Shown here in pieces: positions 43,852 through 49,249 of a stretch of DNA of 64,000 nt; the stretch's first letter is position 1; each line of letters starts with the position of its first letter. The translations under genes were made by a program, and so were the position numbers. Location: sequence record OR352947.1. One strand, written 5' to 3'. The stretch comes from Escherichia phage AV117. Under the pieces are notes generated by a model, which was not told the DNA's origin, did no database searches, and saw nothing but the letters and a program-made list of their open reading frames with translations.

Positions 43852-44277
43852 TTATTTAAATTTAATTTTCTGAAGTGCATCAATTGCAGCCAAACGCCCT
43901 TGTTCACTTTTAACTGTAATAACCACATCACCTGATACGATCACCGAACCATCAACAAATTCTACAGAGCCTTTTTTGAAATCGACAGCTGTATCTGGTT
44001 CCGGAACTTCTTCAAAGAATTTAAATTCTGCACCATAAAGCAGAATATCACCTTGCATACTATGAATAGTTCGGCCATAATCGCCTACGGCTTCTACGGC
44101 AATAACCGAAACGCCGTAACCAATCATCTCTTCCACAATAAAATCTTTGGACAATAAAGTAGTATGCAGATTAGTATTAAGACGTTTACCAGTCGTATTA
44201 AGAATTCTCAAGAAATTATCTTCTTGACCTTTGATAATACGATATTTCTTACCAACTTCAAAACCTTTAAAAGCCAT
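43852..44277 (-). CDS. hypothetical protein (141 aa)
   Basis: ORF track. Confidence 0.55.
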   Translation of the reverse strand: MAFKGFEVGKKYRIIKGQEDNFLRILNTTGKRLNTNLHTTLLSKDFIVEEMIGYGVSVIAVEAVGDYGRTIHSMQGDILLYGAEFKFFEEVPEPDTAVDFKKGSVEFVDGSVIVSGDVVITVKSEQGRLAAIDALQKIKFK

Positions 44278-44461: not shown

Positions 44462-44890
44462 TTATTCCTTAAAATGTGCTTTCAACATTTGATACAAAGA
44501 CCATGCCTGGTCGTTATTTTCGATAGTAATCGTCATCACCGGAAATTCAGACAATTCGTCAAGTTCACCAGAATCTTGCTCTTCGGACGCTTGATATGGA
44601 TTTTCAACTTCGTCAAAGAACTCTGCTTCATTCGTGGAGAGCCAGATAAAGTTTTCATCAAGGATATCACCGCCTGTTGCGTATCCAACCGTGCCAGTAG
44701 ATGTCACAATTTTAGTAGGACGTCCGAGATGGTCAACATCTAAAATTTTAAATGGCTCCATGCCAAGACGTCGTGCATAAATCCCATTATCAGTGTGGTT
44801 TTTAATAAACTCTTCTTGGGCACGTTTATCTTTAAATTGGTACCATGAGTTAACGCGGAATTTATTAGCCATTAGTAAGTTTCCTTCCAA
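44462..44890 (-). CDS. hypothetical protein (start possibly at 44872)
   Basis: ORF track. Confidence 0.5.
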
Positions 44891-45144
44891 TAAGTTGTAC
44901 CATTTTCAGTGATTTCACGGAAGATGCCATAGATAGGCATTTCGTCACCGAGTTTTTCGTAAACGTAAACCACTTCGGTGTAGCATAAAAATTCGGTCCA
45001 GTTTTTCTGTACAACAACTAAATCAGGATTAAACAGAACATCTTCAAACTCATCGATGTTTGAATCAGTAGTTACGTTTTTAATGATTTGACGTTTCATA
45101 ATATTCTCCTCTTGTTTTGATAGGTCTATAGTATCATAGACCAT
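44872..45144 (-). CDS. hypothetical protein (90 aa)
   Basis: ORF track. Confidence 0.5.
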
Positions 45145-45157
45145 AGTTGTTGTACAT
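45128..45157 (-). promoter_or_regulatory. early-type promoter-like element with GGTCTAT/ATAGACC inverted repeat
   Basis: variant -35 on minus strand; -10 TACTAT. Confidence 0.35.
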
Positions 45158-45681
45158 CATTTTAGCAAAATAAAATCAACTTGTTCTGACAATGAACGTC
45201 TAAACATTAATTGACAACTTCCGAGGATGAAATCAGGTGCTTCATAGACCGCGATGTAGTATCCTTTAGCTTTCAAGAGTTCAACATCCACCTGGTCATC
45301 AAACCATGCATAAACCGCGTCAACACTTTCAAATCCAAAATATAACCCTTTAGCCCAATCTTCACTCAATTCAAATGAGTGGTCAATTCTATAGTATCTT
45401 AAGATATTTTGTTCAAGGAGTTTGTCTTCATTTACTGTAGGACGATTAGGGACATTATAGTTGTCGCCGTGATGGTAGAAGTTACCTGAGAGTATTCCAT
45501 GCTTATCAAGGAACTCCCATGTTTCTTCAGAGTTGTCGGTGCCCGACCAACCGTATGGCGAACGAGGTTCTTTATTCCAAGAGGTTTCCCAAATTCTGAC
45601 GGCTTTACCATCTTCGATAGCAATTCCTGGTAATGATTCACGTTGAGTACAAAAACTACGTTCTACGCGGTAAACTAACAT
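45157..45681 (-). CDS. hypothetical protein (174 aa)
   Basis: ORF track. Confidence 0.55.
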   Translation of the reverse strand: MLVYRVERSFCTQRESLPGIAIEDGKAVRIWETSWNKEPRSPYGWSGTDNSEETWEFLDKHGILSGNFYHHGDNYNVPNRPTVNEDKLLEQNILRYYRIDHSFELSEDWAKGLYFGFESVDAVYAWFDDQVDVELLKAKGYYIAVYEAPDFILGSCQLMFRRSLSEQVDFILLK

Positions 45682-45707
45682 ATTATTCTCCTCTGGTTGA
45701 TATGGTT

Positions 45708-45736
45708 ATAATATCAAAACCAGAGGAGAAGTAAAC
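45708..45736 (-). promoter_or_regulatory. early promoter (-35 GTTTAC, 17 nt, -10 TATTAT); spacer carries reverse complement of downstream SD region
   Basis: gtaaac 45731-45736; ataata 45708-45713; inverted repeat 45684-45696 / 45717-45729. Confidence 0.55.
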
Positions 45737-45740
45737 AACT

Positions 45741-46160
45741 TTATGCAAAAGATGCTGGACAATATTTTTTGATTTGGAACTCAGGAACTACCATGAACTG
45801 TCCAGCGAAAACGATGTTATAAAGCTTAACACCATCTTCTACCCATTGGTCCGAAATAAAACCAGCAACTTGATTCGTTGTCCATGGAGACCCGTCAGTT
45901 GCAGAAGCAATAGTAAATTCATGGTCTTTTACAACTAAAACAGACCTGCACAGTTTCCATTTGAACGCACGTTCTTCTGGTTCAATGAATTGGCTTTTAA
46001 CATAACCAATGTTACCATCGGCGTCACGAACTTTAACTTCGTTACGTCCAAAAACCGGATCACTCACGTAAAGAACTTCAACCAACTTCCCGGCAACTTT
46101 AGAGCGAGAAGCAACAGATACATATACGTAATCACCTGTAGAGAGATTTACAATATTCAT
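45741..46160 (-). CDS. hypothetical protein, paralog family member 1 (139 aa)
   Basis: Shares DQWVEDG.KLYNIVF.G.F.VV and VS.ASRSK.AG.LVEV blocks with 46170..46688. Confidence 0.6.
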   Translation of the reverse strand: MNIVNLSTGDYVYVSVASRSKVAGKLVEVLYVSDPVFGRNEVKVRDADGNIGYVKSQFIEPEERAFKWKLCRSVLVVKDHEFTIASATDGSPWTTNQVAGFISDQWVEDGVKLYNIVFAGQFMVVPEFQIKKYCPASFA

Positions 46161-46169
46161 AATAATTCC

Positions 46170-46688
46170 TTAAGCTTTAAGAGGAGACACATAGCGAGTG
46201 ATTTCAGATTCTTTAACAACTCGGAAGTCACCTAAGAATACGATATTGTATAGCTTTTCACCATCTTCAACCCATTGGTCGCTAATGAAGCCACACATGA
46301 TATCAGTTGTGCTTGGATAACCGTATTCGTCGATGTAATCAAATTCTTTATCGGTTATAAATTCAACGCCTTTGCAAAGAGCCCATTTGAACTGTACATT
46401 AGGTTCAGTAGAAGCAAAATGAGCGCTCACACGAGTTTCCAGGAATTTAGGACTTACGTAAGCGTACTGAGTATCCTGACGTCCAAAACTAGGAATGATT
46501 CGAACTTTAACTTCTTTAATGCGTCCCATGCCATTTGTGCGAAGTCCGACAACTTCAACCAGACGACCTGCGGCTTTAGACCGGGATGCAGTTGATACAC
46601 GCTTAATTTCACCAATAGTAATCATAATTTCTCTCTCTTTGTTTAAATTGAATTCACTATACTCCATCCATCCTTGGATGTACAACAT
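46170..46688 (-). CDS. hypothetical protein, paralog family member 2 (start possibly internal)
   Basis: Paralog similarity. Confidence 0.6.
   Translation of the reverse strand: MLYIQGWMEYSEFNLNKEREIMITIGEIKRVSTASRSKAAGRLVEVVGLRTNGMGRIKEVKVRIIPSFGRQDTQYAYVSPKFLETRVSAHFASTEPNVQFKWALCKGVEFITDKEFDYIDEYGYPSTTDIMCGFISDQWVEDGEKLYNIVFLGDFRVVKESEITRYVSPLKA
46656..46685 (-). promoter_or_regulatory. early-type promoter-like element with CATCC/GGATG inverted repeat
   Basis: variant -35 TTGTAC; -10 TATAGT. Confidence 0.35.
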
Positions 46689-47224
46689 TAATTAAGGATA
46701 TTAACTACTGCACTACGTGGAACCACACTAAAATCACCGGCATGAACAACGTTCAGAAGTTCAACACCGTCTTCAATCCATTGGTCAGTTACCCATCCAT
46801 TTACTGGACCATCGAATGGGCGTCGAATTGAAACATATTTACACAATAAATCAGTAGGCTCAATAGGCTTAATCAGAGTACCGTACATACAAACGATATC
46901 CATATCAAAGTGGAGACCATCTTTAACAGGTGCTTCTTCAATCAAGAGTTCAAAGTCGGTGCTTGGAAGGGCGGTAGTAGAAATTGTACCGTATAAATTT
47001 TTAATTTCTAAGAATAACCAAGGGCCTTCAACTTGTTTAATGAAGTTAACAATAGTGAAACTATTACCTTGAGTGGCGCCTAAAATTTCACAAAACTTTT
47101 CGTAAGCTCGCACTGAAGCACCGTACCAATTGATTTGTTTTTCGTCTTTCAGGATGTAAGTAGCCGTAGTATTGATATTCATAATGTTTTCCCGTTTGGT
47201 TAAGATAGAAAGATTATACTCCAA
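46688..47224 (-). CDS. hypothetical protein, paralog family member 3 (178 aa)
   Basis: C-terminal DQWIEDGVELLNVVHAGDFSVV block. Confidence 0.6.
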   Translation of the reverse strand: MEYNLSILTKRENIMNINTTATYILKDEKQINWYGASVRAYEKFCEILGATQGNSFTIVNFIKQVEGPWLFLEIKNLYGTISTTALPSTDFELLIEEAPVKDGLHFDMDIVCMYGTLIKPIEPTDLLCKYVSIRRPFDGPVNGWVTDQWIEDGVELLNVVHAGDFSVVPRSAVVNILN

Positions 47225-47242
47225 CCGTCCTTGGTTGTAAAC
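47213..47242 (-). promoter_or_regulatory. early-type promoter-like element (-35 GTTTAC, -10 TATAAT) with CAACC/GGTTG inverted repeat
   Basis: gtaaac 47237-47242. Confidence 0.45.
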
Positions 47243-47246
47243 TGTT

Positions 47247-47939
47247 TTATCGCTGTTTTACACTTAACGGGTCAGGATTCTCAGGGACATCTTCAAGGCC
47301 AAGCGCATAACGCTGAGCATATTTTAACATCAAAATATCTTTAGCACAATCATGAATACTATCATGGGCAACGAATCCTTTTAGCGTACCCATCGGTAAT
47401 GGACACATACTTAATCCTCGTGTCAACGAGTAAGCTTCGATTGCCGTACGAATATCGCGTTGAGCCCAGAATTTAACCGGTTCTAATTTATCAGTATCAA
47501 TATCCGGTTCAAGAACACCTTCATCACGATAGAGGTCACGAATCAAATCGACCAAGATCGGGAAGTCAAAGCTCATACCACGGCACCACATCTGTGATTT
47601 CCATTGGTCAACTTTATTAGCTCGGCAATAGTCTAAAAAGATTTTAATGCCTTCAAGCGTAGTGACATCGTCTTCAGACGGAGCCAAGTTTTTACGTGCT
47701 TCAGCCGATTGTTCTTTCCACCATTTCATAGTGGATTTAGCAAAAACTCGCTTCCCTTTCTGAGAAGCCAAATTAAATTTAATTCGCTTACCTCGTTGAA
47801 CAAGTTCTTCAAATGATTCAACAACTTCAGGGTCGGAATTATATGCAATAACCGCAAGGTCAATAACAGCCGCTTTTGATGTATTGCCGAATGTTTCAAA
47901 ATCTATAATAACATCAGTGCTCATAATTTTCTCTCTCAA
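47247..47939 (-). CDS. dexA: exonuclease A (DEDD-type 3'-5' exonuclease)
   Basis: 230 aa; N-terminal IIDFETFG acidic motif; position upstream of dda. Confidence 0.7.
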   Translation of the reverse strand: MREKIMSTDVIIDFETFGNTSKAAVIDLAVIAYNSDPEVVESFEELVQRGKRIKFNLASQKGKRVFAKSTMKWWKEQSAEARKNLAPSEDDVTTLEGIKIFLDYCRANKVDQWKSQMWCRGMSFDFPILVDLIRDLYRDEGVLEPDIDTDKLEPVKFWAQRDIRTAIEAYSLTRGLSMCPLPMGTLKGFVAHDSIHDCAKDILMLKYAQRYALGLEDVPENPDPLSVKQR

Positions 47940-49249
47940 ATAAAATGGACGTCAAACCGACCACGAGTTGTGCCGACATACAATAACTGTTTAGCTAATT
48001 CTGAATCGGCATAATGGATACACGGTGTATAAACAAAGGCCGTGTCAACAGACATACCCTGGGCCTTATGGAAGGTTGATACTGGTAGTGCCTTCACCTT
48101 AGTGAACATACGTTTAGCATCCCAGAATTCGCTCCATGGAGCTTTACCACCTTTATTCCAAAATTTGTATGTTTCTGCGGTCTTAGCCAAAAACAAATTG
48201 AATTTATAAAGCTCTTCTTCAGAAGAAATAACCTTTATATCTTCGCGGATGTATTCTTCATCATCCCCATATGTTTCTACTGTAAGATTCCAGTATCGTA
48301 TCATATATTCGCCTGAAACACCACGTGCTTTAACGAATGTAGACGTTTCTACAGCATCTCGAATACGAACGAATTGGCCGTTATTGAAAAGCATTTCGGT
48401 CATATTTTTACCATCTAGCTTATATGTCTTAGTAAATGGCTCCTGTAGAACAATGACTTCGTCTTTAATAAATGGTTTTTCTGTTTCAAGAAGTTTTCGG
48501 CGAATAATTGAATTTAGCTTGTCCACCGACTTATTTGTGAATGCCATCATTCGATTTTCGAAAAGGTCTTCAGGAGTTTTAACGACGTTAAAATAGTTCA
48601 TCATATACGATTTAAGGTCTGTATATCCATGAACACCGTGCCCATCAACTACTTTATCGTAAATCCATTTGCCGTTACGAATATCAGTCGCAACATCAAT
48701 AATTGGTGCATTGCTACGTTTAACTTCCGTAAGGTTGCATTGCACGAAGTCTTTGTGAGTGAAGAAAGGACTTAGATACGCAGTTGATTCGCCTGGGTCT
48801 ACCGGACGAATCTGGCATCGGTCGCCGATGCCAATTACTGTACACCATTTAGGGATACTAGCTAACATTATTTTAAACAGAGAACGGTCGCACATTGACG
48901 CTTCATCAAATAACAGTACACGGCACAAGGCTAAGTCGGGGACCTTTTTCTGTTCAAACAATACGTTTTCTTCGTATGTAGTTGGGTTGATTTTAAGAAT
49001 GCTATGAATAGTCGATGCTTCTTGACCTGCAAGTTTGCTTAGAACCTTTTTAGCGGCATGTGTAGGGGCTGCTAAAATAATACCTGATTCTCCAGAAGAA
49101 ATAAGGGCTTCAACGATGAATCTAGTAAGGGTTGTTTTACCTGTACCAGCAGGCCCATTAATAGTTACATGATGTTTCTTTTCTTTAATAGCGTTCATAA
49201 CAACGTTGAAGGCGTTTTTCTGGCCTTCAGTCAAATCATCAAATGTCAT
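47936..49249 (-). CDS. dda: Dda DNA helicase (SF1B)
   Basis: 437 aa; Walker A GPAGTGKTT; matches recalled T4 Dda. Confidence 0.9.
   Translation of the reverse strand: MTFDDLTEGQKNAFNVVMNAIKEKKHHVTINGPAGTGKTTLTRFIVEALISSGESGIILAAPTHAAKKVLSKLAGQEASTIHSILKINPTTYEENVLFEQKKVPDLALCRVLLFDEASMCDRSLFKIMLASIPKWCTVIGIGDRCQIRPVDPGESTAYLSPFFTHKDFVQCNLTEVKRSNAPIIDVATDIRNGKWIYDKVVDGHGVHGYTDLKSYMMNYFNVVKTPEDLFENRMMAFTNKSVDKLNSIIRRKLLETEKPFIKDEVIVLQEPFTKTYKLDGKNMTEMLFNNGQFVRIRDAVETSTFVKARGVSGEYMIRYWNLTVETYGDDEEYIREDIKVISSEEELYKFNLFLAKTAETYKFWNKGGKAPWSEFWDAKRMFTKVKALPVSTFHKAQGMSVDTAFVYTPCIHYADSELAKQLLYVGTTRGRFDVHFI

Follow-up and report, generated by a model that had tools for sequence, protein, structure and literature searches.

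Three small open reading frames lie side by side next to dexA in Escherichia phage AV117, and a first-pass annotation took them for a tandem triplication of one early gene, each copy with its own promoter, under diversifying selection and possibly serving host takeover or anti-defence. Is this locus indeed an early gene multiplied in an arms race, or something more ordinary? We addressed this question in a 64,000-nucleotide stretch of the phage genome (record OR352947.1; hereafter the window). The phage is T4-like and falls in the RB69 group (Mosigvirus). Over positions 45100-47300, the window shares 98.4% identity with Escherichia phages AV112 and AV113 and 96.3% with JS09.

Gene order and family membership

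The three adjoining reading frames (hereafter c1, c2 and c3) are present where they had been placed, and every gene here, neighbours included, lies on the minus strand. Their position upstream of dexA holds in plus-strand coordinates only; by the direction of transcription they are downstream of it, the order being dda, dexA, motB.1 (c3), motB (c2), motB-like (c1), a motB.2 homologue, cef and goF (Table 1). The limits first given for c1 stand, whereas those for c2 (up to 46688) and c3 (up to 47224) are those of the longest reading frames and span promoter sequence. Both genes start at an ATG with a ribosome-binding site, at 46625 and 47182, respectively, and, with lengths of 456 and 495 nt, agree with the genes as annotated in JS09 and RB69.

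Table 1. The motB region of the window in order of transcription; genes are assigned by sequence similarity
Feature	Position	Strand	Remarks
dda	47936-49249	-	first in transcription order
dexA	47247-47939	-	after dda, before c3
c3 early sigma-70-type promoter	47213-47241	-	TTTACA-17-TATAAT, 11/12 matches; promoter scan
c3, motB.1 orthologue, 164 aa	46688-47182	-	matches phrog_2333, Pfam motB and T4 MotB.1
Shared C-terminal core of c3	46715-46804	-	residues 127-156, VNGWVTDQWIEDGVELLNVVHAGDFSVVPR; dN/dS 0.06
c2-c1 early promoter	46656-46684	-	TGTACA-17-TATAGT; promoter scan; overlaps the end of c3
c2, motB orthologue, 151 aa	46170-46625	-	matches PF17613, phrog_1671 and T4 MotB
Counterpart of the N-terminal block in c2	46551-46598	-	no counterpart in c3
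Shared C-terminal core of c2	46209-46298	-	residues 110-139; dN/dS 0.11
c2-c1 junction	46161-46172	-	GCTTAAGGAATTATTATG
c1, second motB copy ("MotB-like", RB69ORF010c), 139 aa	45741-46160	-	matches Pfam motB and phrog_1671
N-terminal block of c1 (KOW-like domain)	46071-46121	-	VSVASRSKVAGKLVEVL
Shared C-terminal core of c1	45780-45869	-	residues 98-127, VAGFISDQWVEDGVKLYNIVFAGQFMVVPE; dN/dS 0.10
motB.2 homologue, 174 aa	45157-45681	-	after c1; then cef and goF

Annotations of JS09, RB69, Shf125875, phiE142, WFbE185 and mar005P1 show the same gene order, and the names motB.1, motB, "MotB-like / RB69ORF010c" and motB.2 are in use in JS09, RB69, Shf125875 and others. Tequatrovirus phages ime09 and GiZh carry motB.1, motB and motB-like in the same order as the window, but their motB.2 comes immediately behind dexA and not behind motB-like; this is also its place in T4 and other Tequatrovirus phages, between dexA and motB.1. 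The 174-aa neighbour of c1 is 35% identical to T4 MotB.2, a protein unrelated to c1, c2 and c3, and no further member of the MotB family was found in the 64-kb window. Gene order and T4-type early promoters mark these as early genes of the dexA-cef region, as is the case for MotB proper in the Tevenvirinae.

All three proteins scored above the curated gathering cut-off of the Pfam family motB (PF17613; 25 bits, whole-protein score), with 78.1 bits for c1, 130.5 for c2 and 34.6 for c3. The match spans residues 1-149 of c2 (positions 2-160 of the 162 in the profile) and residues 88-159 of c3 (profile positions 82-153). Both c2 (E 1.9e-63) and c1 (E 3e-51, profile positions 2-166) match phrog_1671, a family described as 'MotB-like transcriptional regulator', from end to end. 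The characters that define MotB.1 were found in c3, namely a full-length match to phrog_2333 (residues 1-164, E 1e-80) and homology to T4 MotB.1 (37% identity over 134 aa, E 9e-26). T4 MotB aligns end to end with c2 (47% identity, E 1.9e-43) and nearly so with c1 (38.5% identity), and the annotated motB products of RB69 and JS09 are 93-94% identical to c2. RB69 motB (RB69p011) and RB69ORF010c (RB69p010) are direct orthologues of the pair, with 93% protein identity to c2 and 88% to c1, and have the order and the 9-bp junction of the window without substantial difference. Sequence searches of Pfam, PHROG and the PDB returned no relatives of the three proteins outside the MotB/MotB.1 family, the PDB search with c2 giving no match (best E 0.87). 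On these similarities we assign c2 as the MotB orthologue, c1 as the MotB-like RB69ORF010c and c3 as the MotB.1 orthologue.

How far the three proteins resemble one another depends on the pair. Paralogy extends over the full length of c1 and c2 (45% identity across 145 aa, E 6e-33), whereas BLASTP aligned c3 in the C-terminal block only, over 29 aa with c1 (62% identity, E 3e-11) and over 36 aa with c2 (44% identity, E 3e-10). T4 MotB aligns with c3 at 32% identity over 94 aa (E 2e-11), and profile matching widens the region common to the three proteins to about 70-90 aa. Two blocks had been reported as common to all three. The C-terminal one (DQW[VI]EDG..L.N[IV]V..G.F.VV) is indeed found in each, whereas the N-terminal one (VS.ASRSK.AG.LVEV) is present in c1 and c2 and absent from c3. 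The two-domain architecture of MotB proper is accordingly that of c1 and c2 and not of c3, in which the N-terminal block is missing. T4 MotB shares both blocks with c1 and c2 (S-RSK-AG-LVEV and DQWVEDG-KLYN-VF), and the S-RS-..G..VE columns of the N-terminal block are invariant across 52 MotB-family sequences. Pairwise alignment bore out the C-terminal similarity as genuine and not confined to low-complexity sequence. A low-complexity origin was rejected, the core being compositionally ordinary and the E values (1e-10 to 1e-11) coming from composition-adjusted BLASTP.

The shared core occurs in several architectures: at least four N-terminal types precede it, in proteins of about 143-145, 164-169, 176-183 and 241-252 aa; the c3-type core is almost invariant in 46 homologues with four different N-terminal domains, and remains 72-89% identical to that of c3 even in proteins that are otherwise unrelated. 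MotB and MotB.1 have been described as proteins with a common conserved C-terminal domain and different N-terminal domains, one protein having possibly arisen by duplication of the other (Patterson-West et al., 2021; PMC7827196). The supposed triplication thus resolves into an old duplicate, c2/c1, and a domain chimera, c3, with an unrelated N-terminal domain, and the three are paralogues of the early region at the level of domains.

The AF2 model of c3 (pLDDT near 85 for each of its two beta domains, falling below 50 between residues 86 and 108) consists of an N-terminal small beta-barrel (residues 1-85, approximately), a disordered linker (86-108) and a MotB-type C-terminal domain (109-164). 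Its N-terminal part, with five strands and one helix, is like the published models of the MotB.1 family, and T4 MotB.1 has a matching barrel in front of a MotB-type C-terminal domain. In the PDB the model matched Tudor, KOW and PWWP (SH3-like) barrels, and in BFVD Foldseek matched it only to MotB.1, MotB and KOW-type phage proteins. Kim et al. (2025; PMC12152347) assign the N-terminal domain of MotB.1 to a family with an LSm-like fold that also includes GoF and Frd.2. GoF was absent from the BFVD match list of the c3 model, and hhalign comparisons of the c3 N-terminal domain with GoF/ORF005c, using shallow alignments built from the loci, gave only a weak link (probability 15-36%, with values down to 0.3%). 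For the C-terminal domain of T4 MotB, HHpred has predicted an OB-fold (PMC7827196); no OB-fold protein was among the best 60 matches in either of our structure lists, which do not show the aligned residues.

The SH3-like (KOW/Tudor) N-terminal fold expected of MotB proper was found. The layout of c2 is a KOW-like N-terminal domain followed by the MotB C-terminal domain, and c1 (AF2 pLDDT 86.9, pTM 0.71) follows the same two-domain plan with shorter loops and without net positive charge. T4 MotB, with 162 aa, has a pI of 9.2 and a net charge of +5 in its N-terminal domain, compared with 7.7 and +7 for c2, 5.8 (acidic to neutral) and 0 for c1, and 4.6 and -4 for c3. Given the pI of c1 and the zero net charge of its N-terminal domain, DNA binding by this protein is uncertain.

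Promoters and the c2-c1 junction

The proposal that each copy has its own promoter held for c3 and c2, and failed for c1. The c1 ATG lies 9 bp past the c2 stop, and the TAA of c2 is embedded in the c1 ribosome-binding site. No promoter-like site was found by the scan on the minus strand from 46160 to 46650, and the junction is identical in all 11 loci compared, which came from Mosigvirus, Tequatrovirus and Carettavirus. Since the junction leaves no room for a promoter, c1 is co-transcribed with c2, to which it is probably also translationally coupled. The c3 promoter is kept in all aligned RB69-like loci and the c2 promoter in the Mosigvirus loci, while Tequatrovirus loci have GTTTACA...TATAAT at the same place as the latter. 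Overall, the promoter scan was not enriched relative to shuffled sequences (10 sites found, 9.4 expected), so the promoter calls rest on position and conservation. T4 motB is likewise preceded by an early promoter and located in the interval from dexA to cef, although as one copy rather than two in tandem.

Beyond c1, the promoter of the motB.2 homologue sits within a strong hairpin (45686-45730, -23.9 kcal/mol, z -6.2), the 3' arm of which holds the ribosome-binding site of that gene. T4 retains a hairpin of equal strength but different sequence.

Selection, recombination and distribution

We estimated dN/dS and dS by the Nei-Gojobori method in the RB69-like set. For c1, c2 and c3, dN/dS was 0.17, 0.23 and 0.14, respectively (mean dS 0.31, 0.43 and 0.18), compared with 0.012 for dda (mean dS 0.13), 0.023 for dexA (0.07) and 0.045 for cef (0.15). 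By domain it ranged from 0.06-0.11 in the shared core up to 0.43-0.49 in the linkers. The three genes are therefore under purifying selection, which is strongest on the shared core and relaxed relative to the enzymes, and the diversifying selection that had been proposed finds no support in values of 0.14-0.23 per gene and 0.06-0.49 in every domain. Tandem amplification under such selection would make all copies full-length paralogues with omega >1, and neither was found.

An arms race, in which a tandemly amplified early gene diversifies under selection (an anti-defence protein keeping pace with a variable target in the host would be one case), would nevertheless account for some features of the locus. 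Within RB69-like phages protein identity is 83-96% for c1, 74-94% for c2 and 91-98% for c3, and in Mosigvirus the three are far more variable than their neighbours (74-97% compared with 99-100% for the dda, dexA, cef and gp39.2 proteins). Their dN/dS exceeds that of dda and dexA by a factor of 5-20, and the region is early and non-essential. However, dN/dS is well under 1 in all genes and domains, and dS is up in parallel with dN, so that the additional divergence is attributable to recombination or an older coalescence and not to proteins changing faster. The paralogues are old, c1 and c2 being separated by a saturated dS of 1.77, c3 is a domain chimera rather than a copy, and the literature that we found on the MotB family reports no anti-defence activity. 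We consider an arms race very unlikely.

Relative to dda and dexA, dS of c1 and c2 is raised 3-6 fold. Against Tequatrovirus ime09 and GiZh, dS is 0.68 for c1 and 0.41-0.43 for c2, compared with >2 for dexA and saturation for cef. As the c2-c1 pair is more alike between genera than the genes that flank it, it behaves as a cassette moved by recombination, and its raised dS and cross-genus similarity together point to mosaic recombination.

To describe the distribution of the second copy, we defined close c1 orthologues by at least 80% identity and counted them in GenBank phage records. They occurred in 207 of the 777 phage records matching c1, in three genera, and included those of Tequatrovirus ime09, GiZh, RB68 and PP01; no record had a match at 60-80% identity, and the other 570 matched only below 60%. 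GenBank served as the source because a scan of IMG/VR with c1 gave only 2 close loci. RB69 itself has been described as carrying two motB copies, one motB.1 and one 29-aa peptide, and was named as the one phage with two copies of motB (PMC7827196). In a midpoint-rooted NJ tree, c1 formed its own clade, nearer to the T4-type MotB clade than c2 is, which is weak evidence.

Could c1 then be a redundant duplicate on its way to becoming a pseudogene? At 139 aa against the 151 aa of c2 it has lost loops as well as its net positive charge, and neither T4 nor the majority of T4-like phages carries the gene. Yet its reading frame is intact in 11 of 11 loci, its AF2 model is confident, its orthologues of at least 80% identity are spread over the 207 records in three genera, and its dN/dS (0.17 overall, 0.10 in the core) largely refutes decay, which we regard as extremely improbable.

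Taken together, we are confident that what lies here is the motB module of an RB69-type phage, set in the non-essential early stretch from dda through dexA to cef, with a bicistronic c2/c1, a chimeric c3, purifying selection and a mosaic cassette. The cluster is real and ordinary, and has already been described in print.

Proposed roles and the reference MotB.1

In this module, c2 and c1 are an old tandem duplicate of a KOW/Tudor-like small beta-barrel joined to the MotB C-terminal domain, expressed as a bicistronic unit from a single early promoter. In c3 the MotB C-terminal domain follows another N-terminal barrel, and the gene has an early promoter of its own. The host-takeover function suggested at first sight agrees with what is known of the characterised member of the family, T4 MotB, which is a host-takeover protein. 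It binds DNA non-specifically and alters H-NS binding (PMC7827196); the evidence includes DNA binding, co-purification with H-NS/StpA and an altered H-NS footprint, together with 75 up-regulated host genes and a 2-fold effect on burst (PMC6070864, PMC7827196). By homology, c2 would be an abundant, nucleoid-binding protein made within minutes of infection, which would bind the DNA of the host and the modified DNA of the phage regardless of sequence and shift H-NS/StpA occupancy, such that H-NS-silenced genes are de-repressed and burst size rises modestly. This role is carried over from T4 MotB, to which c2 is only 47% identical, and c2 is much the less basic of the two. Small early proteins that lift H-NS-type silencing include T7 gp5.5, T4 Arn and Mip of Pseudomonas phage LUZ24; their resemblance to the proposed role of MotB is a functional analogy only. 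MotB acts via DNA binding, not via the H-NS oligomerisation or DNA-binding domain. More tentatively, the shared C-terminal domain probably brings c1 and c3 to the same target or partner as c2, with their differing N-terminal domains or charge providing a different second contact.

A further reading makes c1 and c3 partners or modulators of MotB, the core serving as an oligomerisation surface for mixed complexes in which the non-basic c1 tempers the toxicity or DNA affinity of MotB and c3 adds a barrel of RNA-binding type. It draws on the core being the most conserved part in paralogues and orthologues alike and its fusion to several N-terminal domains, on the co-transcription of c1 with c2 through the invariant 9-bp junction, and on the N-terminal domain of c1 being without the positive charge found in that of c2. 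T4 MotB is moreover toxic in E. coli (PMC6070864), and T4 MotB.1 and GoF ran partly as dimers (PMC12152347). On the other hand, AlphaFold3 returned no confident MotB.1 homomultimers (PMC12152347), and the 570 of 777 matching records without a close c1 orthologue indicate that MotB does not need c1. We find this reading rather unlikely. A more elaborate form, quite unlikely in our estimation, would have the core act as a docking or oligomerisation module in mixed MotB/MotB-like/MotB.1 complexes that join DNA-binding KOW barrels and LSm-like barrels of RNA-binding type on the nucleoid, with the coupled second copy setting MotB activity or toxicity and the cassette being exchanged between genera.

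At 164 aa c3 is complete, whereas the T4 reference MotB.1 protein has 119 aa and that of re-sequenced T4 has 143 aa. The T4 reference motB.1 contains one extra G, which makes it end in ...DQWIGRWR*; with this G removed, IEDGVELLNVVHAGEYSVVPRSAVVAILN* is restored, within DNA annotated as intergenic. The extra G occurs only in AF158101.6 and NC_000866.4 and is missing from 13 other records of T4, T4T, RB55 and RB59, which annotate a 143-aa MotB.1. A programmed frameshift was rejected as the cause of the truncation, the extra G being restricted to the reference record. In the RB69 reference, motB.1 is split over three frames, and the 29-aa 'Category 3' peptide is the C-terminus of MotB.1. T4 motB.1 deletion and amber mutants grew normally, and MotB.1 had no effect in a reporter assay (PMC12152347). 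That study cites its T4 sequences from NC_000866.4, used commercially synthesised constructs and gives MotB.1 as a 13.8-kDa protein (Kim et al., 2025; PMC12152347); its MotB.1 probably lacked most of the shared core.

As a discovery the locus has little value, since a Pfam entry exists and both the domain shared by MotB and MotB.1 and the two copies in RB69 have been published. It does show that the second motB copy is not an oddity of RB69, as roughly one in four of the phage records matching c1 contains it, and that this copy always follows motB via the invariant 9-bp junction, with genera sharing the pair as a recombining cassette. The T4 reference MotB.1 is truncated inside the core, and assays built on that reference may therefore have used an incomplete protein. 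For the family as a whole, purifying selection that is strongest on the core speaks for a common target that is conserved, and against an arms race.

Interrupted motB.1 genes in the reference genomes

In the T4 reference, motB.1 (119 aa, UniProt P39415) is cut short by a single extra G within the DQWIEDG-containing C-terminal core common to MotB, MotB-like and MotB.1, and its other 29 codons are preserved in the next frame beyond that G. The extra G is confined to AF158101.6 and NC_000866.4, being absent from 13 other records of T4, T4T, RB55 and RB59, and a 143-aa MotB.1 is annotated in both G-less records examined (MT984581.1 and T4T HM137666.1). The published MotB.1 experiments giving a 13.8-kDa product and citing the reference sequence (Kim et al., 2025) were thus probably done with the shortened, 119-aa form.

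The RB69 reference motB.1 is also split: three reading frames share it, corresponding to residues 1–123, 123–139 and 140–164 of the intact protein, which is present as a 164-aa product in every other RB69-like locus examined. The annotated RB69p012 (29 aa), the 'Category 3 peptide' of Patterson-West et al. (2021), is the detached C-terminus of MotB.1.

Features in and around the motB cluster
Feature	Sequence	Position	Strand	Details
T4 motB.1 truncation region	NC_000866.4	3222-3310	minus	counterpart in window: 46688-46790
Split RB69 motB.1	NC_004928.1	4377-4873	minus	frame comparison with intact protein
Strong hairpin	window	45686-45730	minus	just upstream of motB.2 homologue (45157-45681); -23.9 kcal/mol, z -6.2
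goF	window	43852-44277	minus	matches PHROG 622
RB69ORF005c gene	window	44462-44872	minus	matches PHROG 622

Mosaicism and related neighbours

Between Mosigvirus and some Tequatrovirus phages (ime09 and GiZh), motB and the motB-like gene (window 45741-46625) differ by a dS of 0.4–0.7, with protein identities of 78–92%, whereas for the flanking dexA and cef dS exceeds 2 and identity is 65–67%. On these sequence comparisons, the pair is clearly a local mosaic or recombination patch.

Since both match PHROG 622, goF and RB69ORF005c are paralogues; the gp39.2 zinc-ribbon gene stands between them. ORF005c also matched the MotB.1 family profile phrog_2333 weakly (E 0.0013). Taken together, the paralogy and this weak match yield three candidates for an LSm-like N-terminal barrel, which may thus be common to three proteins within 3.4 kb. 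The MotB C-terminal domain is likewise common to three proteins in the same 3.4 kb.

Position of motB.2 and its upstream hairpin

Comparison of window 45157-47182 with T4, ime09 and GiZh showed that motB.2 directly follows dexA in those three phages, whereas the window and every RB69-like phage have it behind the motB-like gene, accompanied by its own promoter and hairpin. T4 motB.2 is also preceded by a hairpin, equally strong (-23.7 kcal/mol) but different in sequence; a hairpin is hence found before both genes despite their different cluster positions. In the window, a TTTACT-16-TATTAT promoter has its -10 element in and around the hairpin loop, and the GAGGAG ribosome-binding site of the motB.2 homologue lies within the 3' arm. 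In the proposed model, this ribosome-binding site would be sequestered in read-through transcripts and free in transcripts from the gene's own promoter.
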